Source: Octopus vulgaris
Taxonomy: Eukaryota
NCBI GenBank assembly: GCA_951406725.2
Contig: OX597832.1
Coordinates: 42,904,001-42,968,000 of the forward strand
Direction of reading: 5' to 3'
DNA length: 64,000 nucleotides
Shown: positions 39,677 through 64,000 of the stretch, one piece after another
Numbering within the stretch: position 1 is the first letter of the stretch
Layout: every line of letters begins with the position of its first letter
The notes under the pieces: model-generated
Told to the model about the DNA's origin: nothing
The model's database searches: none
What the model saw: the letters and a program-made list of their open reading frames with translations, nothing else
Made by a program: the position numbers and the translations under genes

Positions 39677-41998
<2,322 letters not shown>

Positions 41999-42165
41999 TA
42001 TGTTTGACTTTTGCTTTATATTTGTACAAGTTGGCTCCAAGTCTCACCCAGAGACCTCAAGAGACAACAGGGTTGGAAGTTCATGTTGTTGTTATGCCTA
42101 GTGTGCCATATATTTGGGGGGTGGGGATGTTGTACTAATGAATGTCTAAAAAGAAAAAAAAAGGG

Positions 42166-42226: not shown

Positions 42227-45223
42227 TTACATAGAGAGTATTTTGCGTAGGATATGAGCAGTTCCCATGAGCACTATCTTTTGAACTTCTGCCATTTTTG
42301 GGTTTCCTGGTATCTGAGTTAGGTAGCTATCAGCCCCTTTTGCTATCATTCCCAGGGCACCTATGACAACAGGTATTGTTTTAGTCTTCAGCTTCCACAT
42401 TTTGCTGATTTCTATTTCAAGATCTTTATATTTGCTCAGTTTTTGGTAGGTCTTGACAGATACGTTTATATCGATTGGGACAGTCATATCAATGAGGAGG
42501 CATGTTCTTTGTTTGAAGTTTTTCAATATGATGTCTGGCCTATTTGCATCTATCTTCCTGTCAGTTTGAATGGTGAAGTTCCAGAGGAGTGAGATGTGGT
42601 CATTTTCAAGCACTGGGGGTGGTTTGTGTTCCCACCAGTTTTTTTCATGGGGCAAATCCAGGTTTTTACAGATTACCCAGTGAATATATTGTGCAGCTCT
42701 ATCGTGCCTGTTGAGATACTCTGTAGGCGCTAGAAGACTGCACTTGGAGACCACATGGTCAATGGTTTCATTTTGTTGCTTGCATACACGACACGTTGGA
42801 CTGCTTCTGATCTTTAATATGTTGGCCTGGTAGTTTCTTGTTGGTAGGCATTGATCTTGAGCTGCTATGATAAACCCCTCTGTTTCAGATTTTAAGCCAG
42901 AGGCCATTAGCCATTGATGGGTCAGGGCTTTGTCGATATCTGCATTATTCGCTCTCTTTGGGTATTTGCCATAGAGAGGTTTTTCTTGCCATTTATTATT
43001 CAGAATATCTAAGGCCGCAGTTTTGGCACGGGTTTTCATGCGCCTAGCTTTTTCTGTGCTTGTTTCTTGTATATCTATCTCTAATTCCGAAATTGGTTGT
43101 ATTCGGAATTCACTTAGATATTCCTTTGCCTGTTTTGTGACTGAGTATGATGCTTTCTTGTTTTCATGTTTTGAGACAAGTTTTAGCATCCAGTCCTCAG
43201 AGTTTTTCAGGTAGGTGTCTAGGCCAATTGTAGCAATCTTCATTGTTATTGCCAGTTGCAAAAGACCACGGCCTCCCTCTTTTCTTGGCAGATAGAGTCG
43301 TTCTGTATCTGCCTTAGGGTGGTGCATTCTATGCATTGTCAACAGTTTCCTTATTTTTCTGTCGAGCTGACATATTTCAGTAATTGACCAGTTAACAATA
43401 TTGAAACTGTAAGTCACGACTGGTATAGCTAATGCATTGATTGCTTCGATCCTGTTTCTTGCATTCAGCTCTGTCTTGAGTATTGCTCTCACTCTTCGAT
43501 AGCATTCTCTCCTGATCCTTTCCTTCATCTCTGAATGCCTTATTCCGTTCCCTTCAATTATCCCTAGGTACTTGTAGCTCTCCGCTGGGTCTAGTTCTTT
43601 TATGACATTCTGTTGGTCAAGGTTAACGTTAGATGTTTCTGTCATTTTTCCTTTGATAAAGGTAGCCTTTGCACATTTATCGAGGCCGAATTGCATTCTG
43701 ATGTCGTCACTGAATTGTTTGACTATCGCTAGTAAGCCCTTGAGTTGTTGATCATTTTTTGCAAAAAGCTTTAAATCATCCATGTAAACGAGATGATTTA
43801 TATTTTTATCAAACATTTTATACCCGTACTGCGCGTCATTGAGCAGCTTTGAGAGAGGTATTAAGGATAAACAAAAGAGGAGTGGTGACAGTGAGTCACC
43901 CTGGAAAATGCCACACGAAATTTTTACATCACCAGCATTTAGGGATTCACTGTCACTGTTCAGAGTTAGTGTGGTTCTCCATGATCTCATACTTACAGTC
44001 AAGAAGTTTCGCAGAGTTGGTGCTATCTTATACATTTCAAGGCATTTCCTAATCCAGCTATGTGGTAGGCTATCAAAAGCCTTTTTATAGTCTATCCAGG
44101 CTATTGATAAGTTTTTGTGTCGTTTGTGACAATCTTCTAAGATCATCTTATTGATGAGTAGTTGGTCTTTACAGCCGTAGGATCCACGTTTACATCCTTT
44201 CTGTTCATTAGGGAATATGCTGCTGTCTGTTAAAAAACTATAGGTATATTCCGTCAGGACAGATGTTAGTGTTTTGTACATAGTTGTTAAGCAGGTTATG
44301 GGTCTATAGTTTTTTGGTTCATTTGTTTCTTCACTTTTTGGAAGCAGGAATGTTAACCCATTAACTAGCCAAGGAGGCATCCTACTAGGGTGTTGCAAAA
44401 CATCATTGTACAGTTCTGTTAGCAGTTCATGGCTCTCTGGGAAGGCATTCAGCCAGAAGTTAGGAATTTTATCCTTTCCTGGAGACTTCCATTTGCTTGA
44501 CCTCCTGAGAGCAGATCTTATATCTTCTACCTTGACACCCTCCCACTTTTGCTCTTCTAAGGGGTCCAGTTCTGTAGATATTCTGTCAATCCAGGGGGCC
44601 TTTTCGTTGTGTGTTTTTTCTTCTGCCCAGATTTTATTCCAAAATCTCTGCACTTCTTCTTTTGATGGTACAGACCCTGCAGTAAACGCTGTTTTTCCTA
44701 TCTTCCTGTAAAAATTCTTGGTATTATTTTTGAACATGTTGTTGTCCTTGAAAAATCTAACACGCTTTTCATACCTCGCTATGCGGGCAGCTTTGGCAGA
44801 TACCTTTTGTTTGATGGTTTCTATGGTGGCATCAATATCAAGTATAGTTTTCATATTGTATTTTTTCAGTAATTTTTGGGTTTTTGTAGGTTTGGTAATC
44901 TTGTGAGCCTTAAGGTTTTTCAAATATTCAATGTCAGATCTAAATATTTTAATTTGTTGTTGCAGACGCTCTTGCCAAGAAGGCTTTTTGTGGGACTGTT
45001 GCCGTTTTCTAATCTTTACACCACATAGGATCGTTGAGATTTTCGCGGATGCATAGTATAGGTGGTTGAGGTTTGTGATATCAACATCATTAACTGAAAT
45101 TATATCCTTAAGTGCAAGCCGGATTTTACCAATTATTTTCATGTTTTGGTTAGAGTTGCGGATTTTAGGAAGTGTATCACGCTCATCCATGCTGGTTTCT
45201 TTAATTTTCAGCCATTCAATCAT
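42227..45223 (-). CDS. Reverse transcriptase plus CCHC zinc finger plus restriction-like endonuclease (998 aa; C-terminal part of the element ORF)
   Basis: RT motifs KSPGKDKIPNFW, NYRPITCL, WIDYKKAFDSLPH, GIFQGDSLSPLLF, YMDDLK and YKYLG. Zinc finger CRVCKQQNETIDHVVSKC followed by RHD. RLE core RPDIIL...IDMTVP...KLSKY. Confidence 0.95.
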   Translation of the reverse strand: MIEWLKIKETSMDERDTLPKIRNSNQNMKIIGKIRLALKDIISVNDVDITNLNHLYYASAKISTILCGVKIRKRQQSHKKPSWQERLQQQIKIFRSDIEYLKNLKAHKITKPTKTQKLLKKYNMKTILDIDATIETIKQKVSAKAARIARYEKRVRFFKDNNMFKNNTKNFYRKIGKTAFTAGSVPSKEEVQRFWNKIWAEEKTHNEKAPWIDRISTELDPLEEQKWEGVKVEDIRSALRRSSKWKSPGKDKIPNFWLNAFPESHELLTELYNDVLQHPSRMPPWLVNGLTFLLPKSEETNEPKNYRPITCLTTMYKTLTSVLTEYTYSFLTDSSIFPNEQKGCKRGSYGCKDQLLINKMILEDCHKRHKNLSIAWIDYKKAFDSLPHSWIRKCLEMYKIAPTLRNFLTVSMRSWRTTLTLNSDSESLNAGDVKISCGIFQGDSLSPLLFCLSLIPLSKLLNDAQYGYKMFDKNINHLVYMDDLKLFAKNDQQLKGLLAIVKQFSDDIRMQFGLDKCAKATFIKGKMTETSNVNLDQQNVIKELDPAESYKYLGIIEGNGIRHSEMKERIRRECYRRVRAILKTELNARNRIEAINALAIPVVTYSFNIVNWSITEICQLDRKIRKLLTMHRMHHPKADTERLYLPRKEGGRGLLQLAITMKIATIGLDTYLKNSEDWMLKLVSKHENKKASYSVTKQAKEYLSEFRIQPISELEIDIQETSTEKARRMKTRAKTAALDILNNKWQEKPLYGKYPKRANNADIDKALTHQWLMASGLKSETEGFIIAAQDQCLPTRNYQANILKIRSSPTCRVCKQQNETIDHVVSKCSLLAPTEYLNRHDRAAQYIHWVICKNLDLPHEKNWWEHKPPPVLENDHISLLWNFTIQTDRKIDANRPDIILKNFKQRTCLLIDMTVPIDINVSVKTYQKLSKYKDLEIEISKMWKLKTKTIPVVIGALGMIAKGADSYLTQIPGNPKMAEVQKIVLMGTAHILRKILSM

Positions 45224-45234
45224 GATTTGATTTT

Positions 45235-46047
45235 TTAGCTCATGTAGTTCTCTGTTGGGTCAATATTTGTGTGACTTTCTTTATCTATTTGATGCTCATC
45301 TGTCTTAGTGTTTATGATTGGTTCAGGGCGTATTTCACTTTGCCTATCACTTATACTAACTCTTTCAATCCTCTCTTCGTTTTTATCCGCCCTGGGCTGG
45401 TCTATAATCATTTCCTCTGTATTATCTTCTCTAGCTGCAGCTTCGTTCATTTTATCCGATATTGCTTGTCTAACCTGATCAATCTCTACTTCAGTCAGTA
45501 ATTTCTTTTTTATAATGTTTCTTCTAACATTGGCAAGCTTGTTACTGTCTATGTAGGGTCTTACTTCAGGGTGTTTCTGTCTCCAGTTTAAGTATGCTTG
45601 TACAGTGCTAGACTTATCTGTGGGGAAATATATGGCATGGTAGAAGGCCTCAAGAACTTCTTTATTATCTTCCCTAGACCATTTTTCCTTCTTTTTCTTT
45701 TGATTATTTGGTGATGAGCATGGATGGCCATCTGTTGGAATATTCCGGTTGTGGGGTTCGTCCAGCTCCTGTGTGTTGGGAAGATTTGATCCAGTAACTG
45801 ATTTTTCAATCAGGATTTGGTTCAATTTTCGGGTACGTGGTCTTTTGTAATCCGCGCAATGACCAATGCGGTTTATTGTTTGATTTGTTGACCTTGAAGC
45901 ATGACGAGCATCCATTCTTATATTAGGAGATGGATCTGTCAGTTTAGGGTTCACTACATGTAAGCATTGCTCATAGCGCCGCTTCTTAAGACTAGCAGAT
46001 CTATATTCGTCTGTATTTTTTTTGTTGATAGTTTTATCTCCGGACAT
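45235..46047 (-). CDS. N-terminal 270 aa of the retrotransposon ORF, separated from the RT part by a -1 frameshift
   Basis: Segment KKEKWSREDNKEVLEAFY...NKLANVRRNIIKKKLLTEVEIDQV resembles the N-termini of RLE-type elements. The downstream frame is open from 45259 (PNRELHELKNQIMIEW), overlapping this ORF at 45238-45259. Confidence 0.75.
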   Translation of the reverse strand: MSGDKTINKKNTDEYRSASLKKRRYEQCLHVVNPKLTDPSPNIRMDARHASRSTNQTINRIGHCADYKRPRTRKLNQILIEKSVTGSNLPNTQELDEPHNRNIPTDGHPCSSPNNQKKKKEKWSREDNKEVLEAFYHAIYFPTDKSSTVQAYLNWRQKHPEVRPYIDSNKLANVRRNIIKKKLLTEVEIDQVRQAISDKMNEAAAREDNTEEMIIDQPRADKNEERIERVSISDRQSEIRPEPIINTKTDEHQIDKESHTNIDPTENYMS

Positions 46048-46180
46048 TTTTTTTTTTTTTTTTTTCCTTTCCTCCTCTTCCTTTCTTCAAGGCTTACTGT
46101 GTCTGTATTAGTTCGAAATAATGAGAATAAAATACGGAGAAGGAAACGAAAAGAAAGGGAAAAAGACGGGATCTGTCAGT

Positions 46181-46490
<310 letters not shown>

Positions 46491-49890: not shown

Positions 49891-50542
49891 TTCAAAAACT
49901 TGCACCAATATCACCACTGAACAATACCATCATCAACATCACCACCGACAACCAAAGCAGCAATAATACCACCATTTCCACTAACACTACCGACATATAC
50001 AACGAGCACTCCCTCACGAAACAACTACAACAGCAAGAAGATACATTGCGACAAATGTCAGGCTAAATTACATAAACCTGAAATTGTGAAGCGTTCTGTG
50101 AAATATGTCGTCGTTTGAGCGGGCAATTGAGATAATAAACCGCTTTAATCTGCCATATTGTTTCGACGCTTTTACCCACGTTCTCACCCAATTTACAGAA
50201 GCTATTTTGCTGTCGATGCAGCTATTTCGCACTATTACTACTACTACTACTACTACTACTACTATTACTACTACTACTACTACTACTACTATTACTGCTG
50301 CTACTGCTGCTGCAGTCTCTCACTGCAGTCTCACATCAGCTCTGAACGAGTAAACCTATGCTATCCAGGTAGGTTAGTTGCTAGTAGATATTTTAGTAAT
50401 TATAACTATAATAATCCTCTCTATTATAGGTAGAAAACCTAAAATTTTAGGGTGTTGGTGGGGCTAGTCGAACACATCATCCTCAGTGCTCAAACTGGTA
50501 CTTAGTTTATCAACCCCGAAAGTATTATTATTATTATTATTA

Positions 50543-50868
<326 letters not shown>

Positions 50869-52111
50869 AAGTAGTAGTAGATGATGTTGATGACGTTGCT
50901 GCTTGTTTATTTGTTTGTTTGTTGAGCGAAGCGGTCTTCGTGGGGGAAGTCCGAAACTTTTCGTATAAAGGACAAAACGATTACAACAATTAAAGTATGC
51001 TTTTATTTGATGTGACTGCTTGCATGAAGGCTTGGAGGGACGGTAACCGATGCACACGAGTCGATCCAAACACTCAGTTTTCGGTGATGTAATAGAGGTC
51101 AATCATTATGACGATAATGAGTTGGGCGACCGAGGCGACGAGGAGGAGGAGGAGGAGGAGGAGGAGGAGAAGGAGGAGGACGACGAAGACTGAAGAATCA
51201 TGGTGGAGTTAAAGGTGTCAATAAGACGAAAATACTAGTGTTATTTATGTTGGTGGTAGTGATGATGTTAGGGGTGGAGTTGGCGGTGGAACTGTACTGT
51301 GGTGGTGGTAGTTATGGAGACGATAATGAAGGTGGTGATGATGAATATAAGATGATAATGATGTCAATGACGATGATGGTGATGATGATGACGAGGAAGA
51401 GGCGAAGGAGGAATTCGATGATCAATTTAATGATGGCAGTTGATGAAGATAGTGAACATGATAACGATAATGATGACGATGACAACGATGATGATGATGA
51501 TGGTGGTGGTGGTAATGGTGGTAGCAGTGATAATGTTGTTAGTGGTAATGGTGGTCGTGCTGGTGGATGTTGTGACGATGATGATGATCGTGATGATGAT
51601 GATGGTGGTCATCGTCGTCGTCGTGATCGTGGTGGTCGTGGTGGTCGTGGTGGTCGTGGTGGCGGTAGCAGTGATGGTGTTGTCAGTGGGAATGGTGATC
51701 GTGCTGGTGGATGTTGTGGCGATGATGATCATGATCATGATGATCATGATGATGCATACCCCACACCTTGTTGTGAGCAAATCATTATCAGCGCCACAAA
51801 CCGGGGCGTGGCGCGAACACTATTGTTTTGTAAATAGTTAATTAGTTTAAAGCTTGCTTAATTGAATATTTTAATTAGGTAGTTTTACAAAGGCAAACAA
51901 TTAATTACTGATGCTTTCCTCCTGTCACGCTGACAATGAAAACGACGCAGTTTAATTAGTCTGATTTAGAAGGATGGCACAGAGTTTATATAGCGAACAA
52001 GACGGAAGGGTCATCGGTTCAATACCTGTCATTAGCACTGTGTGTTTGCATCTATCATGGAAACAATTTCTATCTCATGAATTCACAGCAATCTCAAATG
52101 GTATCACAAGG

Positions 52112-52202
<91 letters not shown>

Positions 52203-52295
52203 ATCCAAACAAGAAAACACAAAAAAACACAACAACGCGAGGACGTGGAACAAATATAGTATTATTGGACGCTCAGGAAAGAAGGGAAGAAGGAG

Positions 52296-52331
52296 GTTTT
52301 AACGTTTCGAGCGGAGCTCTTCGTCGGAAAC
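52296..52331 (-). ncRNA. Minimal hammerhead ribozyme motif
   Basis: Minus strand: GTTT-CCGACGA-A-GAGC TCC GCTC-GAAACGTTA-AAAC. Stem III overlaps the palindrome AACGTT. Confidence 0.6.
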
Positions 52332-52440
52332 ATAGGAGAAGGAAAGATTCTGAGAAGGGAAGACAGAGGAAAAAAAATCGCCAACGGTACACACGAGGTC
52401 ATATATACTTTATTTAAAGCAGCAGAAAATTCAACAAAGC

Positions 52441-52478
52441 CTGTTACTCTGAGTTTCACGTTCCCGTTCGTCGGACAG
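52441..52478 (-). ncRNA. Type I hammerhead ribozyme motif
   Basis: Minus strand: CTGT-CCGACGA-ACG GGAA CGT-GAA-ACTC A GAGT-A-ACAG. All three stems pair, the C3-G8 pair is kept, and the cleavage triplet is GUA. Confidence 0.75.
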
Positions 52479-52880
52479 TTTTTGCTATATATATATCAGC
52501 ATTGATATAAAGATAAATAAATCCAAGTGCAGGTATGGGTGCTTGATACTAAGTTTGCTTTCCAACCACGTGGTTCCGGGTTCAGTCTCATTACTACAGC
52601 ACCGGGCCGACCAGAACCCCGAGAATTAAATTCGGCTGACGGAAACCGAAATGAACCCCGTCATATATATATGTGAGCATTTGTGTGTGTGTGTGTGTGT
52701 GTAGGTAGGTATGGCAACGACACCCCGGTCTCGCGCCATTTCCGCTCTAACCGGTCACTCTTTACAACACTTCTCTGTGTTCGGATTGTCCTTGCACATA
52801 CACACATATAAATATATATATGTACATACATATATATACAAACACACACATGCAACACACATATGAATATATAGATATAT

Positions 52881-53192
52881 CACCGTGATCACCGTGACCG
52901 ACCAGACTATCAGATGTTGCTACACATCGCTGGTCACAATGCGCTTCGCATTGTTTTAGCCTTCAAATGACGCCACCCCGCTGGCTAAGCGAGCAGGCCA
53001 ACAGAAGAAAGAGTGAGAGAAAGTTGTGGTGAAAGAGTACAGCAGGGATCACTCCCCCCCCCCCTGCCGGAGCCTCGTGGAGCTTTAGGTTTTTTTGCTC
53101 TATAAACACTCACAATGCCCGGTCTGGGAATCGAAACCACGATTCTACAACCGCGAGTCCGCTGCCCTAACCACTGGGCCATTGCGCCTCCA
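52881..53192 (-). mobile_element. SINE family C with tail type 1; a plus-strand 5' part lies at 3620-3797
   Basis: Homologous to 5033-5340. Confidence 0.9.
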
Positions 53193-53739
53193 CATATAGA
53201 TATATAAATGTATGTATGTCTACACTTACACTGTACGCAACATCCTACTCGGCACCGTTAGGATCGGAGTGTTACCGAATAACCGAAAGTTCCGGATATC
53301 TAATCATCACTTTTTCAATTACCATATCGCCTTACAAAAGTCATTAAAATCCCATCTATGCATCTTGTATTATCATAAATGTTCTGAATAGATTAGAAAA
53401 GAAGGAAATTATGAGAAACAAAGTATAATTTAAGAATAGAACATTATAATGCAGATGCATTAACCGCAGTAAAATAAAACTCTGCATTGTACTTTGAGAT
53501 GCAACGGTCCATTTTAGATACAATGGAAATTTCCTTTCTTTTCATAACGAATAATTAATTAACACAAATCAGCAAAAATTCCTTTTGACTCTAACAACTT
53601 ATTTTTTGTTCAGTTTTATTTTTCTGAGAGCCGGTTGATATATAGTTCCAGTGATTAGAATACCGGATAAGAGGGGGCTTATTGTTATTGGTTTTGAAAT
53701 TGGTATGCAGATGTCTGTCTTTTTCAATGTTGCATAATA

Positions 53740-54304
53740 TTGGGTTGTCCGGAAAGTTCGTGCCGATGTTTAAAGGAAAGAAAAAGGTCGATAAATACTT
53801 GCTATTACATTTTTAATCAACCAAATATGAACCATTTTGTTACACAATGCGTCTCCATCTTTCCTTTAACTTGAAAATACCCTCTTCCCAGAATTGAGGT
53901 GGTTTCATGGCAAAGAATTCATCAAGGTATCTTTTTACGTCATCCAAGGAATTGAAATTTTTACCATTAAGACTAATCTGCAGAGACCTGAATAAGTGGA
54001 AATCGGAAGGAGCAATATCTGGTGAATATGGAGGGTGGCGTTACACATCCCAGCCAAGCTGCAGCAATTTTTGTCTGGTTCCCAAAGCATCAAGTGCTGA
54101 AAATGAACTTTCTTACCTTCCATTTTAAAGGGTTACAGAATCAACATAGGTTATACGAACATAAACCGTCTTTCACGAAAAGATAGCTTAAACTGTGCTC
54201 TAAATGGAGGTGTAGTCAAATCCTCGTTTATGGACTCAATCATGTTCTAAAATAAATCGAAATATAAGCTACTATAAATCGGCATGAACTTTCCGGACAA
54301 CCCA

Positions 54305-54305
<1 letters not shown>
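53740..54305 (-). mobile_element. Internally deleted non-autonomous mariner element
   Basis: 28-bp TIRs TTGGGTTGTCCGGAAAGTTC(G/A)TGCCGAT with TA on both sides. The transposase N-terminus MEGKKVHFQHLMLWE is joined to the C-terminal PPYSPDIAPSDFHLFRSLQ in a different frame. Confidence 0.92.
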
Positions 54306-54356
<51 letters not shown>

Positions 54357-54374
54357 TTATGTATATATATTCTT

Positions 54375-54850
54375 TTTTTACTCTTTTACTCTTTTACTTG
54401 TTTCAGTCATTTGACTGCGGCCATGCTGGAGCACCGCCTTTAATCGAAGCAACTCGACCCCGGGACTTATTCTTTGTAAGCCCAGTACTTATTCTATCGG
54501 TCTCTTTTGCCAAACCCCTAAGTGACGGGGACATAAACACACCAGCATCGGTTGTTAAGCGATGTTGGATAGGACAAACACAGACACACATACATACACG
54601 CACATATACATATATAAACATATATACGACGGGCTTCTTTCAGTTTCCGTCTACCAAATCCACTCACAAGGCTTTGGTCGGCCCGAGGCTATAGTAGAAG
54701 ACACTTGCCTAAGGTGCCACGCAGTGGGATTGAACCCGGAACCATGTGGTTGGTAAACAAGCTACTTACCACACACAGCCACTCCTGCGCATATATATAT
54801 GGTATATATAGCTACTTACCACACACAGCCACTCCTGCGCATATATATAT
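54375..54850 (-). mobile_element. SINE family A with a local duplication of its 5' 30 bp
   Basis: Full copy; GCTACTTACCACACACAGCCACTCCTGCGC occurs at both 54761 and 54811. Confidence 0.9.
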
Positions 54851-55288
54851 ATATATATATTTAAATGCATACGTTCACACACACACATGCAAGCGCGCCT
54901 ACGTACACATACACATAGAGATGAGTGCGTGTCATGCTGACGCGCTAGCATATATTTTATTATATCTGCAGCTACTTTCAGTTCTTGGCTATTTGGTTGG
55001 CAATAATTTGTATCACATGGTCGTTTGGCATGGACAAATGAAGTTTCTTTTGCCCTGTCCTGTCACAGTACAGAATTAGGCAATTTAATCTCGGATATGC
55101 AAAAAATATTCTATCTTAATTTCTCTTTCTCTCGCACACATATACAGAATGTCAATCTGACCCAAACATTGCTGTTGTTCCAACTAATGTAATTGGTTAT
55201 GTTTGTTTGTTTACATGTGTTTGGACACTATCTGTCTATCTATTTACTTATTTATCTACCTCCCTACCTCCCTACCTCCCTACCTGTA

Positions 55289-55360
<72 letters not shown>

Positions 55361-55426
55361 AATCAATCAATCAATCTAGCTATCTAACTATTTATCTATC
55401 TCACTATCTATTTGTCTATTTATCTA

Positions 55427-55458
<32 letters not shown>

Positions 55459-55481
55459 TCTACCTATCTATCTATCTATCC

Positions 55482-55574
<93 letters not shown>

Positions 55575-55810
55575 CTCAAATGCTTACCTACCTATCTACT
55601 TATATATCAATTTATCTATTTACCTACCTACCTACCAACATGCCAGCCTATCTATCTAGCTAACACGATCCCTATTGATCGGTCCCACTTTTTTATCTTT
55701 TTACACGATCCCTTTTGATCAAAATTTGCCCACCCCCTTTTTCCCCAAAAGAAAAGCTCTACTTTGTACTTTGTCCCTTCTGCGTTTACCTCTGCGTGGC
55801 CAATAAAGAA

Positions 55811-55852
<42 letters not shown>

Positions 55853-56260
55853 TTGTATATCTTTTGATCTATCTGTGAGTCTGCCTGCCTGCTTGTCTGT
55901 CTATTTATCTATCTGGTATGTAGATAGTGTTGTAATCCAAGCTGTGTCCTCATGGAGCACACCTCTGCATTCCAGTTCTTCAAAGTAGTATGTAGATGTT
56001 ATATTTGTGTGAGGCAAGCATACGAGTTGAAAATTGCAGGAAAATAGCATTTGCAAATCCAGACAAATCCCTGGGGGCAATCTGTAGCTGTCCAAACTTG
56101 GCTACTTACTCAGATCAATATCAGCAGTCCATTAAATCTAAATGGAATTTACAGTTCACCCGCGGTTGCACTACGTGTTCGATTAGTAAATCCAAAGTCT
56201 GCTTTGAAGTGTTTCGAAACTTATATATATGTGTACATAATATATATATGAATGTGTATG

Positions 56261-56302
<42 letters not shown>

Positions 56303-56314
56303 CTTATATGTATG

Positions 56315-56346
<32 letters not shown>

Positions 56347-56454
56347 TATATATATATACATACATATATACACCCACATTTATATATATATGGGTACATA
56401 ATATATATATATGAATGTGTATGTGTATATATACATATATTTGTGTATGATAGA

Positions 56455-56635
56455 TCGTTAGCTCCTACACGCATTTTTTTCTCTCCTTGTTTTTTTTCTG
56501 TGTATCTTTCTGTCAAAGAGCGTAGGCTCGAAACGTAAAAGATTTTTTCTATTCCTGAGTGCTATACTAATACATTTGTTTATTTGTACTCCACCTGCCT
56601 TCGTCTTTTGTTTATTTTTGTAAACTTTCCCCGTT
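56455..56635 (+). mobile_element. Microsatellite-embedded element with a degenerate hammerhead motif at 56504-56543
   Basis: ATCTTT-CTGTCAA-A-GAGC GTAG GCTC-GAAACGTA-AAAGAT. The stems are intact but the core is mutated. A homologous truncated copy lies at 28041-28170. Confidence 0.6.
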
Positions 56636-56728
56636 ATATATGTACATGTATGGATATACATGTATTTATTTATATACATATCTTTGTAGACACACATGTA
56701 CACGGACAACACCACAAGCATACGCGCG

Positions 56729-56771
<43 letters not shown>

Positions 56772-56908
56772 GTGTGTGTGTTTGAGGTGTTGGTGAGGTG
56801 TATGCCTGAACTTCGAAGGAACCATGAAGAAACCGAACCTGTATCGATATTTGCATTTTCAATCAATGTTATTTTCTAGTTGCTTTCTTACGAAACAACT
56901 GCTGCTAT

Positions 56909-56941
<33 letters not shown>

Positions 56942-57645
56942 CGACCACGACAACGACGATGACGACGACGATGATGATGATGATGATGCTATTGTGCTGC
57001 TGCTGCTGGTGGTATTCTAATTACAGTCTTTTAGCCCCCATATATCAAGTCAAGCGATCACATAGATAATCCCTTCGTCTCATTGATTTATCGGGGAAGC
57101 CCGTTTTTATGTAGCATTGTTTTTGGCATTTATAGAAATTCGACCTGAGACTGGTTCATTGTATATTCCAAACTTTATTGGAATTTTTTTGTTTCTGAAT
57201 TTTCATAAAATCCTGCCTGTTTGCGCCAGACGGATCGTAGCAATAGCTTTCGAGTGTGCTAAATGACGCGATTCTTTTAGGAGTTTCGATTAGACATTTA
57301 AAACACATGACTTCTGTCACTTGCACGAAAGTCGGATTGGCAGAATCGTAAGAACTTTTGAAAACAATGCCTTAGGGTACTTGTTCCGGGTCTTTATATT
57401 CTGAGTTCAAATCTAGCCGATGTTGCTATTGCTTTATACCCGGCCTGTGGTCGATATACGAAATACCAGTTTAGTTACTAAGATGGCGGCATCGGCTAAC
57501 CCCTTTCCCTGAAAACTGTTGATTTTACGTCTAAATTAAAAACAATAGGCGCAGGCTTTGCTGTGTGATGAGAAGCTTGCTTCCGGTACAGCTTTTGTCT
57601 GTTGGATTGTTGGTTTTGTTTGGTACAAAACACAGACACAAAGAC

Positions 57646-57693
<48 letters not shown>

Positions 57694-57937
57694 CATATAT
57701 ATATACATATATTAAAATTACTAAGTCTCTCTATTTTTATTTTTATTTTTATAAGAATGCCATATTAGTATGGCGATAACTATTATTTTCCGGGAACGCT
57801 GCCGCTGTTCTCTTTTAGAGAGACTTAGTAATTTTAATATTTCTATTATTGAAAACAAGTGGATGTATTCCACCGAAACTAGGTAAATAAAACCATCGAA
57901 CAGAGATTGTCGGAAGCGACACCTACTGGCTGGCTAC

Positions 57938-57979
57938 GCTGCATTGAAAAGGGGCAATACCCCGAAACGCGTCTGTAGC
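57938..57979 (+). ncRNA. Minimal type I hammerhead ribozyme motif, copy 1
   Basis: GCTGCA-TTGAAAA-GGGG CAATA CCCC-GAAA-CGCG-TC-TGTAGC. Stem I is 6 bp with one GU pair, the core has the compensatory U3-A8 pair, stem II is 4 bp, stem III is palindromic, and the GUC cleavage site ends at 57973. Confidence 0.75.
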
Positions 57980-58299
57980 TGCCGGTCAAGTAGTGTGGAG
58001 CGACTGACCTCCCTTGTTCGAAGGTTATATGGATACAGTTTGTGTATCAAATAGCTAACTTAAGGCGATGGCCTCATGGAGCTAATAAGCGGACAGCTTT
58101 ATTCTTATTTTTATAAGAATGCCATATTAGTATGGCGATAACTATTATTTTCCGGGAACGCTGCCGCTGTTCTCTTTTAGAGAGACTTAGTAATTTTAAT
58201 ATTTCTATTATTGAAAACAAGTGGATGTATTCCACCGAAACTAGGTAAATAAAACCATCGAACAGAGATTGTCGGAAGCGACACCTACTGGCTGGCTAC

Positions 58300-58341
58300 G
58301 CTGCATTGAAAAGGGGCAATACCCCGAAACGCGTCTGTAGC
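58300..58341 (+). ncRNA. Minimal type I hammerhead ribozyme motif, copy 2
   Basis: Same sequence as 57938-57979, offset by 362 bp. Confidence 0.75.
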
Positions 58342-58504
58342 TGCCGGTCAAGTAGTGTGGAGCGACTGACCTCCCTTGTTCGAAGGTTATATGGATACAG
58401 TTTGTGTATCAAATAGCTAACTTAAGGCGATGGCCTCATGGAGCTAATAAGCGGACAGCTTTATTCTTATTTTTATAAGAATGCCATATTAGTATGGCGA
58501 TAAC

Positions 58505-58575
<71 letters not shown>

Positions 58576-59094
58576 GCATGTACGTACGTATGTAGGCATG
58601 TATATTTCTCATCGTTACTATAAATAGTCGACTTTGCTGCTCATCCTTTCGGGGTCGATTAAATAAGTACCAGTTGAGTACTGGGGGCCGATGCAATCGA
58701 CTTATCCCCTCTCCCAAAATGGCTGCCGTTGAGTCAAAATTTAAAATCGTTGTTAGCGCTCATCATTTTATGTCATACTTCATCCATCACATCCTATGAT
58801 CAACGACATACGTAGGACCTACATTATCCATCCAGTAATTCCCTTTTCTATGTTCAAAACAGTCAGGAGTTAATAAAGAGAAAGTTGGCTGCTACTTCTA
58901 GCAACCGGCGTCATGGAGAAGTGTTCTAGTGACTATTTGGCTGGATCAGTTGTTGCATAAGATCCAAGTCTGAATAAATTAAGGGGAGAAACGCATTGAT
59001 AGTACAATATGTACAACGTAACCTTTAACATTGATGCATTAGTAGACTGCAAACATACAGGACATATTCGCCATATACACATACACACACACGC

Positions 59095-59127
<33 letters not shown>

Positions 59128-59424
59128 GATGCATTCAATCATGTGACTATACGCATTACGCATGTGTGTATATATAAATGTTGTAAGTATATATATGTGC
59201 GTGTATGTGCGCCCGTTTGTGTGTGTATAAAGATACATCTGAGCTCATTAATTGATAAACACATAATAGGTAAAATATTGATATATATGCTTTTAAAATG
59301 TGTGCCTTCCTCTCTTTCTTTCTGTACATGTGTGTGCATGCGCGTGAGGGGGTGCGTGTGATATAGACATATATTCGCGTATACAGACACACACAGTCAG
59401 ACACACACATGTATATATGTATGT

Positions 59425-59456
<32 letters not shown>

Positions 59457-59655
59457 TATATATATATATATTTAAATTATATATATAATATATATATATA
59501 TATTATATATATATATATATTATATATATATATTTAAATTATATATATATTTATATATATATGTATGTATGTATGTGAATATGTATGTATGCATGTATGT
59601 ATGCATGTATGTATGTATTTATGAATGTATTTATGTATGTATGTATGTATGTATG

Positions 59656-59686
<31 letters not shown>

Positions 59687-60194
59687 ATATTTATGTATGT
59701 ATTCATGTATGTATGTATGTATGTATGTATGTATGTATGTATGTATGTATGTATGTATGTATAAATGTGCAACCACAACATTGTATGAGCGTGGGTGTGT
59801 AAGTAAATGTATAATTCAAGTATGATTTCGAAACTTATAGCTATTCCCTTTCTCTCTCTATTTTATGCGGTGGCGTCATATGTGTGTGTGTGTGTAAGGG
59901 AGAGAGACAGAGAGAGAGAGAAAGTGAAAGAGAGTATGCGTGTGTGTGTGCATGTGTGTACATAAAAGTATTCATAAATATACACGTACATACACGCATA
60001 TATGTGTGCATATGTATATAGATGTGCGTCTGTATATATACATACAAACACACACAAACACATATATATATACACATATATACACATAGACATACGTACA
60101 TACATACATACATCCAAATACATATGCATGCAGAAACACACATACACGCATATATATATTTACACACACACACACATACACACACACATACACA

Positions 60195-60263
<69 letters not shown>

Positions 60264-60327
60264 CATATATACATGCACGTATATTATATATATATATATA
60301 TATGTATGTATATATATATGTGTATAT

Positions 60328-60361
<34 letters not shown>

Positions 60362-60370
60362 ATGCATATA

Positions 60371-60427
<57 letters not shown>

Positions 60428-60524
60428 CTATATATAAATATATATAAAATGCTGATACAATTATAGATTTATACATATATATATATGTACATGCATACAC
60501 ACACTTACATACGCATACATATAT

Positions 60525-60578
<54 letters not shown>

Positions 60579-61446
60579 GAAGCACACATATAAGCATAGA
60601 TTTATTTTGTGTATATCTTCATTATGTATGTTTACAGAAATGAAAATAGAAAATCTATAAAAAGGGTATAAAAAAAACCCAGAAAAGAAACGCCAATTAC
60701 AAGAGCAAAGACAACAATAAAAACAACAACAGCATCATCAGCAGCATCAGCAGCATCAACGATTACGATATCTACAACAACAACCAATTATCTTTACTAA
60801 AGTTACGCAAAACACACACACACACACACAAAGCATAAAAAAAAATTAATAAAAAATGATTTACGCACAAAAAGAAGCGAACCAATAAAACCTAGAATTC
60901 TCCCGAAATTCACAAGTCTTAGAACTCGTCTGATTGCACAGATGTGAGTCACCGTTAATGTTAACAGTTGTGTCTTCATTTATTACTACAGCGGTGTTGT
61001 TGTTGCTGTTATTGTAGCTGTTGTTGCTTCTCTTAATATTTCTGTTCGTGCTGTAGTTTTACTTTCTTTTATATAACGTTTTTTTTTCTGTATCCCACAA
61101 TATATCCGCCATTTTGATATTGTTTCGTCGTAACTGAGAACAGTTTGAAAGAAGTGAATGATAGCGTAATATACCAAGCTTCTATGAAGTGTGGGCGAGT
61201 GGTGCAGACGGTCAGAGCATGAATTTTCCTTTCATTATTACAATGAAGTGTAAGGCGGCGATCTGGCAGAGCCGTTAGCATGTCGGTCAAAATGCTGAAC
61301 GGCATTTCGTCCGTCTTTAGTTTCTGGGTTCAAATTTGACCGAAATTGACTTTGCCCTTCATCTTTTAAGGTGTAATCGACTTACCCCATCCCCCAAATT
61401 TCAGGCCTTCTGACTTTAGTATTAATGATTATTATTATTATTATTG

Positions 61447-61604
<158 letters not shown>

Positions 61605-61626
61605 GTTGTTATTATTATTATTATTA

Positions 61627-61829
61627 CAAATTTTCTTCCGTTTCTCGCCGGGTGTTTTCCATACACCTAGGGCAGAGAAGCTCATTGTATGCATTCCCAG
61701 ATTACACACGCAAATTCACAGATAAAAATATGTATTTAAAAATTTTTAAATAAATAAATTCATGGATGGATGTTGTTTTCACAGCGATAATGCTCTTCTC
61801 AGTACATGAGCCGTTCCAGTGAATACGAT
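61627..61829 (-). mobile_element. 5'-truncated stub of an R4/Dong-related LINE in (TAA)n
   Basis: Minus strand 61829-61779 encodes IVFTGTAHVLRRALSL*. The 3' UTR is similar to the 50543 stub (CCCTAGG...ACAC(T/C)CGG). (ATT)n flanks both sides. Confidence 0.85.
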
Positions 61830-61851
61830 TATTATTATTATTATTATTATA

Positions 61852-61885
<34 letters not shown>

Positions 61886-62627
61886 GCTACTTTCTGAGTT
61901 CAAATTCCGTCGAAGTACCAGTGAAACACTAGGGGTCGATGTAATCGTCTATCCCCGATAGAATAAGTACTAGGCTTACAAAGAATAAGTCCCGGGGTCG
62001 ATTTGCACGACTAAAGGCGGTGCTACAGCATGGCCGCAGTCAAATGACTGAAACAAGTAAAAGAGTATCGAGAATAATATTATTGATTATGTTATCCCAT
62101 TCTTTAAGACGATATTGCGTGAATTGAGGGAGATTTGGTTGCTATTTCTAGCAGATCGATCATTACTTAGAATATCCTGAACATCTAGAAGTGGAGAGAG
62201 AAAAGACATGTCGGAGAGACATTTGGACACTCTGCTATGCTAGCAGTAATTACGTATATGATTAGTTAATTAATTCGTTCATAATTAATTCATCATTACT
62301 TCAGGCTGTTTGTTGTGTCTTTCAATGTTTGACATATCGATATATCGATATTTTCGAGTTACCTTCTTTCTTGGCAACTTAAAAGCATACACGCACGCAC
62401 GCCCGAGAGCAAACACATACACACACAACCACACACGTGCACACACATGTACTCACACATGCACGCACGTACGCATATTCACACAAACATATACACACAC
62501 GCAGACATGTGCAGATATTCACACACTGTTATGTGTCTGTGTATGTAAGTGTGTATGAATGTGTGTGTGTGTGTGCCTGTGTATGTGAATGTGTGGTTGA
62601 GCGCGTGTAAATATATATATAGAGAGA

Positions 62628-63346
<719 letters not shown>

Positions 63347-63567
63347 TATACTACGAGGTTATGAATCCTGCAGACAGGTGTAATAGAAGAGTAATCCTCA
63401 AGTAGCAGCATAGTGATAAAAGCGTGACATAAAGGGCGTTTGTATTGAAGTCAACAATCGGTCAAGCAAGCTTCTAGGTAGTTTTCGTCGACCTGGATTC
63501 AGTTTTGATTCGATTTGCAATGACAAAAGTGTTGCCTTACAAGCCTTGCAGTCGAATCAATCCTGTG

Positions 63568-63644
63568 ACATCCTGATCACGAAAGGAATTTCTGATCTAT
63601 TTACCTATGTCTGTATCAATATCTGTCTATCTACCTGGCTCCTT

Positions 63645-63682
<38 letters not shown>

Positions 63683-63826
63683 CATATATACACACACATA
63701 TATATATATACACATATATATATATGTGTGTGTACATGTAGAGACAGAGAGAGAGAGTGAAAGAGAGACAGATATTGATACAGACATAGATAAACAGATC
63801 AGAAATTCCTTTCGTGATCAGGATGT
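63568..63826. repeat. Inverted repeat with 61-bp arms around a microsatellite core
   Basis: 63568-63628 versus 63766-63826 shows 2 mismatches. The inner (TC)n and (GA)n tracts are also complementary. Confidence 0.92.
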
Positions 63827-64000
63827 ACATAGGTACCTGTATGTATGTCTATATATATATATATATATGTATATGTATGTATATATATATATATATACAT
63901 ATATAGTAGAAGACACTTGCCCAAGGTGCCATGCAGTGGAACTGAACCCGGAATCATGTAGTTTGAAAGCAAGCAACTTACCACACACCCACTTCTGCAC

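Follow-up and report, generated by a model that had tools for sequence, protein, structure and literature searches.

The window analyzed here, the whole 64-kb stretch of DNA, is of animal type and rich in microsatellites (172 tandem-repeat rows); this microsatellite load and the SINE-like repeats resemble those known from octopus. By repeat detection and self-comparison, a tandem array of 775 bp was delimited on the plus strand at positions 57736 to 58510, with a period of 362 bp and 2.14 units. When each base was compared with the base 362 positions further on, the sole mismatch within the array was at 57742. From 57743 on the units match fully, in agreement with the two identical 362-bp units plus a partial third described in an initial annotation of this DNA, and the (TA)n reported to follow the array indeed begins past 58510. 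The dimer of that layout stands, but the partial copy is better placed first than last. In the most plausible reading of the array, a 51-bp piece truncated at its 5' end (57736 to 57786) precedes two full units of 362 bp each (57787 to 58148 and 58149 to 58510), because its right end falls on a motif that also ends at least one other copy of the family.

The locus is most likely a recent insertion of a noncoding, many-copy repeat. The GC content of the unit is 41%, no stop-free frame of 110 amino acids overlapped it in an open reading frame (ORF) scan, and no 14-mer of the unit recurred elsewhere in the 64-kb window.

Several other elements were noted in the window. A near-intact non-LTR retrotransposon lies on the minus strand at 42227 to 46086, with a 1010-amino-acid stop-free frame (RVT_1, E value of 1.9e-27; weak zf-RVT) and an overlapping 283-amino-acid frame upstream. 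Its protein has 837 relatives at an E value of 1e-50 or lower (best identity, 63%), some of them arthropod-named, and the element is putatively of the TAA-targeting Dong/R4 type. It is flanked by (TTA)n arrays at 39679 to 41997 and 46227 to 46488, the first of which extends over 2.3 kb with about 770 copies; the GC content across 40001 to 42000 is 3%. A SINE-like repeat to the right of the tandem array (58620 to 58715) has 16 further matches in the window at 79 to 91% identity. An ORF on the plus strand at 62836 to 63270 had no Pfam match at an E value of 0.001, and its second half presumably resembles a mariner transposase fragment.

Hammerhead motif and folding of the unit

A type I hammerhead had been proposed at 57938 to 57979. 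The motif was recovered on the plus strand at exactly these coordinates and again 362 bases on, and a custom descriptor located the TTGAAAA core with its U3-A8 pair as well as the palindromic CGCG stem III. Stem I has 6 bp (57938 to 57943 with 57974 to 57979) and is followed by the core at 57944 to 57950 (U3, A8), a 4-bp stem II (57951 to 57954 with 57960 to 57963) with the 5-nucleotide (nt) loop CAAUA, GAAA at 57964 to 57967, CGCG at 57968 to 57971, U16.1 at 57972, and C17 at 57973. Beyond an internal loop, stem I resumes for about 15 more pairs (57920 to 57934 with 57981 to 57997). With this extension, the first hammerhead covers 57920 to 57997 (core, 57944 to 57950 and 57964 to 57973; predicted cut after 57973), and the second, identical to it, covers 58282 to 58359, with its core from 58306, C17 at 58335, and the predicted cut after 58335. 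In both, the hammerhead boxes N3-UGA-N-N8-A and GAAA are present, positions 3 and 8 are Watson-Crick complementary, and the cut site fits NUH. The internal loop of stem I has a U at position 1.7 (57980), loop 2 is closed by A57959, and these two bases might make the conserved loop 1-loop 2 contact. A conserved reverse Hoogsteen pair is described for hammerheads (PMC6155905). U3-A8 is reported as a natural covariation, with U3-A8 cores active in vitro (PMC3088659).

The descriptor, which was composed after the motif had been seen and permits any Watson-Crick 3-8 pair, found exactly two type I sites in the 64-kb window. Its relaxed form matched 5 of 5,000 dinucleotide shuffles of the unit and its strict form none of 5,000; across 40 shuffles of the window, the mean numbers of sites were 0.15 and 0, respectively. 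Over 57720 to 58510, Rfam returned no hammerhead and a single match (RT-2, E value of 0.97), and there was no hammerhead among its 140 matches over 50000 to 64000, a miss likely due to the variant core and the tiny stem III.

A second look-alike of the core was observed on the plus strand at 57849 to 57885, also repeated 362 bases on, with TTGAAAA, a 5-bp hairpin, GAAA, and GUA. It was rejected as a ribozyme: its stem I is out of register, there are two or three extra bases before stem II, and the descriptor misses it. A57878 within it is variable (25 to 32% of depth). The look-alike starts exactly at the commonest 3' end of the family and is possibly a decayed ribozyme or a chance occurrence. 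A degenerate U3-A8 hammerhead pattern was also found at 36 metagenome and 2 viral loci. In none of these 38 loci do stems I and II occur together with a palindromic stem III, none has a BLAST match to the unit, and all were judged to be chance.

Folding of 57910 to 58010 gave a z score of -4.13, equaled by none of 200 shuffles. When 57900 to 58400 was folded without constraints, a double hammerhead was obtained. Its stem III is formed by the palindrome ACGCGU and pairs between copies (57967 to 57970 with 58334 to 58331, probability of 0.83 to 0.99), with a within-unit pair probability of 0.0. The strands of stem I are likewise exchanged between copies (57979 with 58300 at 0.99 and 57974 with 58305 at 0.80). 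It is therefore predicted that stem III is too short for a single unit and that the ACGCGU palindromes of two ribozymes would pair with each other, with stem I strands exchanged. Since stem III pairs only between copies in this prediction, multimers would cleave and the monomer circle would be spared. The best reading of the unit is a retrozyme-type unit with a predicted dimer-dependent hammerhead, as suggested earlier.

The predicted 362-nt monomer runs between the two predicted cuts, from 57974 to 58335 on the plus strand, the same coordinates as those first annotated. Its circular fold is a branched rod with a minimum free energy of -122.1 kcal/mol (z score of -7.05), compared with -105.0 kcal/mol for the minus strand, and 63.5% of the monomer is paired. 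The linear fold had a z score of -7.32. Neither form was matched by any of 100 shuffles.

Family copies, variation, and RNA hints

Most sampled words of the unit (85 to 95% of 39) were present in 20 of the 24 public sequencing runs listed (13 studies, 7 organism labels). Four of the 20 positive runs were compared: X1 and X2, which are genome-sized, and X9 and X15, which are RNA by guess. None of the runs listed is on record as RNA, which speaks neither for nor against expression. Contigs matching one unit numbered at least 3,714 in X1 (counted from about 76% of the run), 1,774 in X2, 31 in X9, and 22 in X15; summed contig depth is not a copy number. With thousands of contigs and varied flanks at their loose ends, the 362-bp unit is a high-copy dispersed family. 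We regard the existence of a hammerhead-bearing dispersed retroelement as very likely.

Among the best 24 of 189 loose ends, the recurrent ones past 57846 to 57849 run on as (AT)n (40 and 14 contigs in X1, 14 in X2, and 2 in X9). At 57845 and 57848, single contigs of X9 and X15 pass into other sequence, and the match of one X15 contig stops at 57782 and gives way to a TA run. In one X1 contig, 57809 and 58029 are joined on opposite strands, the inverted anatomy described below, probably at another locus. A 1,999-nt contig (X15 record 16) shares only 57930 to 58026 with the unit and may contain either a sister family or an autonomous partner.

Unit-to-unit junctions were also crossed by contigs: 93 and 29 records overrun the unit ends, and pieces span 57849/57850. 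This bears on two explanations of the dimer itself. A single unit could have been written twice during assembly. The units differ by just one junction base, and in the four compared runs the left junction of this locus is without read cover and no listed piece crosses the whole stretch, all of which would suit such an artifact. It is nevertheless highly improbable, given that unit-to-unit continuity occurs in reads from other samples and that the 2.14 units have distinct, mechanism-shaped ends; the family and its hammerhead hold whatever the local copy number. Alternatively, one unit could have been inserted and then duplicated locally by slippage or unequal exchange, as in the birth of satellites, a route discussed in 10.64898/2026.07.22.740005 and in keeping with the near identity of the units. 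We consider this improbable, though less so than an artifact, since tandems are not peculiar to the locus and the hammerhead is predicted to require a second copy. For the preferred reading, copying of a tandem from one RNA, the units of the locus are informative: the two do not differ at any of the 16 sites that are polymorphic in the family, which points to a single template.

These sites were taken from the best 40 of 61 variant rows. Sixteen variants, each at 4% or more of X2 depth, were kept (X2 has 18 such variants), and 24 listed rows, being rarer, were left out. Judged by the circular fold, 7 of the 16 are unpaired, 8 keep their pair, and 1 (57813) breaks it. For the same substitution kinds, 5.07 pair-breaking variants would be expected (P = 0.006), a value that is optimistic because independence between sites was assumed and the fold is that of the window's own copy. 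Among the rows listed, no core position reached 1% variation in X1 or X2, and stem variants at 57941, 57961, 57982, and 57986 preserve pairs. One compensated pair was also noted: in X9 record 31 and in X15 record 16, both aligned over 57930 to 58026, A-U replaces G57933-C57982 (phase taken from matching depths). These two records belong to a diverged sister group and also carry changes within or next to stem II and the GAAA box. Their stem III is shorter yet still palindromic, X15 record 16 having lost 2 bases.

Contigs identical to the unit extend over the cut site in X15 (record 14, 226 bases) and X9 (record 30, 115 bases); DNA carry-over into these two runs is possible, and contigs do not separate circles from read-through. 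In X15, 16 A>G and 2 T>C differences were counted among 45 places (binomial P = 0.0013, post hoc), an excess of A>G over the 4 of 33 in X1 and X2 together (Fisher P = 0.034, post hoc). X15 record 15 (57893 to 58026; depth, 7.2) has 21 differences, and all 7 of those listed are A>G. Among them are 57956, 57957, and 57959 in loop 2 and 57966 in the GAAA box; at 57957, A>G has no depth in either X1 or X2. This single contig hints at ADAR hyper-editing of the hammerhead strand. Because the ribozyme fold leaves these bases single-stranded, such editing would point to a duplex with an inverted copy and not to the folded circle. Repeats are reported to undergo hyper-editing commonly, and at a very high level in octopus (PMC5625713); a literature search on editing of retrozyme RNA found nothing relevant among the papers listed.

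Insertion ends and the mobilizing enzyme

The array lies between TA repeats. On the left, a (CA)n and then (TA)n microsatellite at 57630 to 57712 is the likely target site, and on the right, (TA)n extends over 58510 to 58576. With (TA)n on both sides, a target site duplication (TSD) cannot be delimited. Next to the left flank, 57709 to 57733 is a perfect inverted copy, on the minus strand, of the 25 bp at 57816 to 57840. It faces outward into the (TA)n and can be extended to 57703 (31 bp at 93.5%). The inverted piece is the 3'-terminal part of the family, a sequence that is missing from the right end of the array. Neither this piece nor the TA repeats on the left flank figured in the initial annotation. 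The junction between the inverted piece and the array (57734 to 57750, plus strand) has three short T5A repeats and includes the mismatch at 57742; we infer slippage or filler there.

Two CTATTAT motifs on the plus strand mark the ends. The insertion ends in (TA)n at the first (57780 to 57786, repeated at 58142 to 58148 and 58504 to 58510). The second, at 57843 to 57849, is the commonest 3' end of the family among the loose ends listed. The implied tail is 54 to 63 bp.

The tandem with an inverted 5'-truncated copy next to it, the tail confined to one end, and the microsatellite target are all insertion marks of the kind left by Penelope-like elements (PLEs). Descriptions of PLEs include partial tandems, a neighboring copy that is inverted and 5'-truncated, and a one-end tail of 30 to 40 bp (PMC8557442, PMC3846280), and Naiad PLEs, reported to be without canonical hammerheads, favor (TA)n as a target (PMC8557442). 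In Octopus vulgaris, 31 recently active Penelope-like families have been reported (PMC13282606). In the 64-kb window, no PLE ORF was found among stop-free frames or with a crude scan for RT and GIY-YIG motifs, and the array itself is without the RT and GIY-YIG ORF of an autonomous EN+ PLE. Overall, the element was probably mobilized by a PLE.

Another reverse transcriptase could in principle have moved the unit, for example that of the restriction-like-endonuclease LINE at 42227 to 46086, an RT ORF flanked by microsatellite in the same window. The surroundings of that element are (TAA)n rather than (TA)n, and it has no BLAST match to the unit above noise, which makes a mover of this kind very hard to credit.

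A closer competitor accepts the PLE but dispenses with the small circle. The unit would be the pseudo-LTR (pLTR) of an autonomous PLE, and the locus a heavily 5'-truncated insertion made through template jumps on linear RNA. PLEs show inverted and tandem anatomy of this kind, Xenopus retrozymes are reported to be homologous to pLTRs (10.64898/2026.07.22.740005), and the 1,999-nt X15 contig has no more than 57930 to 58026 in common with the unit. However, the entire 362-nt monomer folds into a closed rod whose pairing is kept by variants, and the helices of the hammerhead are of canonical size, unlike the minimal motifs of metazoan PLEs. In addition, the loose ends (24 of 189 rows, 30 letters each) lead into (AT)n, a diverged unit, or unrelated flanks, with no recognizable ORF. 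We consider a pLTR origin unlikely, although it is the least unlikely of the alternatives.

Proposed cycle and comparison with known retrozymes

The reading that we prefer is a chain in which a self-cutting tandem RNA yields a 362-nt circle that is copied into (TA)n in trans by a PLE, and we put its probability as a whole at roughly 70%. Read-through transcription of a tandem would be followed by dimer-dependent cleavage, predicted to release the 362-nt monomer. A host ligase would then close the monomer into a circle; mussel and axolotl units have been circularized by RtcB in vitro (PMC7229834). Within the RNA, a TA-like motif, here presumably the CTATTAT ending at 57786, would serve nicked (TA)n as the priming site. 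Copying would go 2.14 times round the single template, carried out by a PLE reverse transcriptase/endonuclease in trans. The opposite nick may prime near the usual 3' end of the family and copy 25 to 31 bases, which would give the inverted piece. For the cleavage step, it is relevant that only one of nine predicted Xenopus retrozyme dimers was reported to cut in vitro (10.64898/2026.07.22.740005).

A more speculative extension, which we regard as unlikely, joins a young cephalopod family and priming by Penelope RT at TA-like motifs in the circle to editing by ADAR of catalytic and loop adenosines as an off-switch. If this were true, the "tail" that is optional in Penelope insertions would reflect the choice of priming site inside an RNA circle. 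The family is young and abundant, and end-mapping in one genome could directly test PLE mobilization and circle templating.

The 362-bp family likely belongs to the metazoan non-LTR retrozymes, a kind already known and common. As described in PMC7229834, these are noncoding tandem units of 150 to 450 bp, each with a single type I hammerhead, whose GC content is below 50% and whose monomer is self-paired. The octopus array has the same features, with a 362-bp noncoding tandem unit, a GC content below 50%, and one type I hammerhead in each unit. Units of 220 to 245 bp in coral, 350 to 390 bp in mussel, and 330 and 350 bp in axolotl are given in the same work. The octopus stem III, one pair with a palindromic tetraloop, fits that described for axolotl HHR_Amex1, which cleaved well only as a dimer (PMC7229834). 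Two consecutive units with complete hammerheads also characterize the "putatively active" elements of 10.64898/2026.07.22.740005. The octopus unit differs from the retrozymes of PMC7229834 in its U3-A8 core within a canonical-size hammerhead and in being bordered on both sides by (TA)n and carrying an inverted 3'-end piece. It has no discernible TSD at this locus; TSDs of metazoan non-LTR retrozymes, where they occur, exceed 4 bp. Those retrozymes show expression of both linear and circular monomer RNAs, whereas the octopus unit is known from its sequence and predicted fold.

Among the papers listed by our literature search, there was no description of a cephalopod retrozyme, though supplements to PMC7229834 and PMC4209133 or repeat libraries may list one. 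Cephalopods are absent from the main text of PMC7229834, and the words "ribozyme" and "hammerhead" are absent from the main text of the 2026 Octopus vulgaris repeat annotation (PMC13282606).

The initial annotation had also drawn a parallel with the minimal hammerheads of PLEs. That of Schistosoma mansoni (PMC4209133) shares the U3-A8 pair, the palindromic stem III, and predicted action as a dimer, and this part of the parallel holds at the level of prediction. The minimal type itself was ruled out by the canonical helix sizes: the octopus motif has a stem I of 6 bp with a long extension, a stem II of 4 bp, and no extra base between positions 9 and 10.1, whereas the minimal PLE hammerhead has a helix I of 4 to 5 bp, a helix II of 7 to 8 bp, and an extra base at 9/10.1 (PMC4209133).

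PLEs were previously named "a strong candidate" mover of animal retrozymes (PMC7229834), and in 2026 retrozymes and PLEs were tied by phylogeny (10.64898/2026.07.22.740005). That link is built on co-occurrence and pLTR phylogeny, mostly in vertebrates, whereas the one proposed here is built on integration anatomy, and no named PLE was tied to the unit by sequence. Like EN+ PLEs (PMC8557442, PMC3846280), the octopus family shows partial tandems, an inverted 5'-truncated copy, a one-end extension, and microsatellite targets; unlike them, it is without an RT or GIY-YIG ORF, and its tail is 54 to 63 bp rather than 30 to 40 bp. The finding extends the known retrozyme family and opens no new one. 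It supplies a natural U3-A8 hammerhead of canonical size, and the PLE-type integration marks on ORF-free hammerhead tandems bear on which enzyme moves animal retrozymes.
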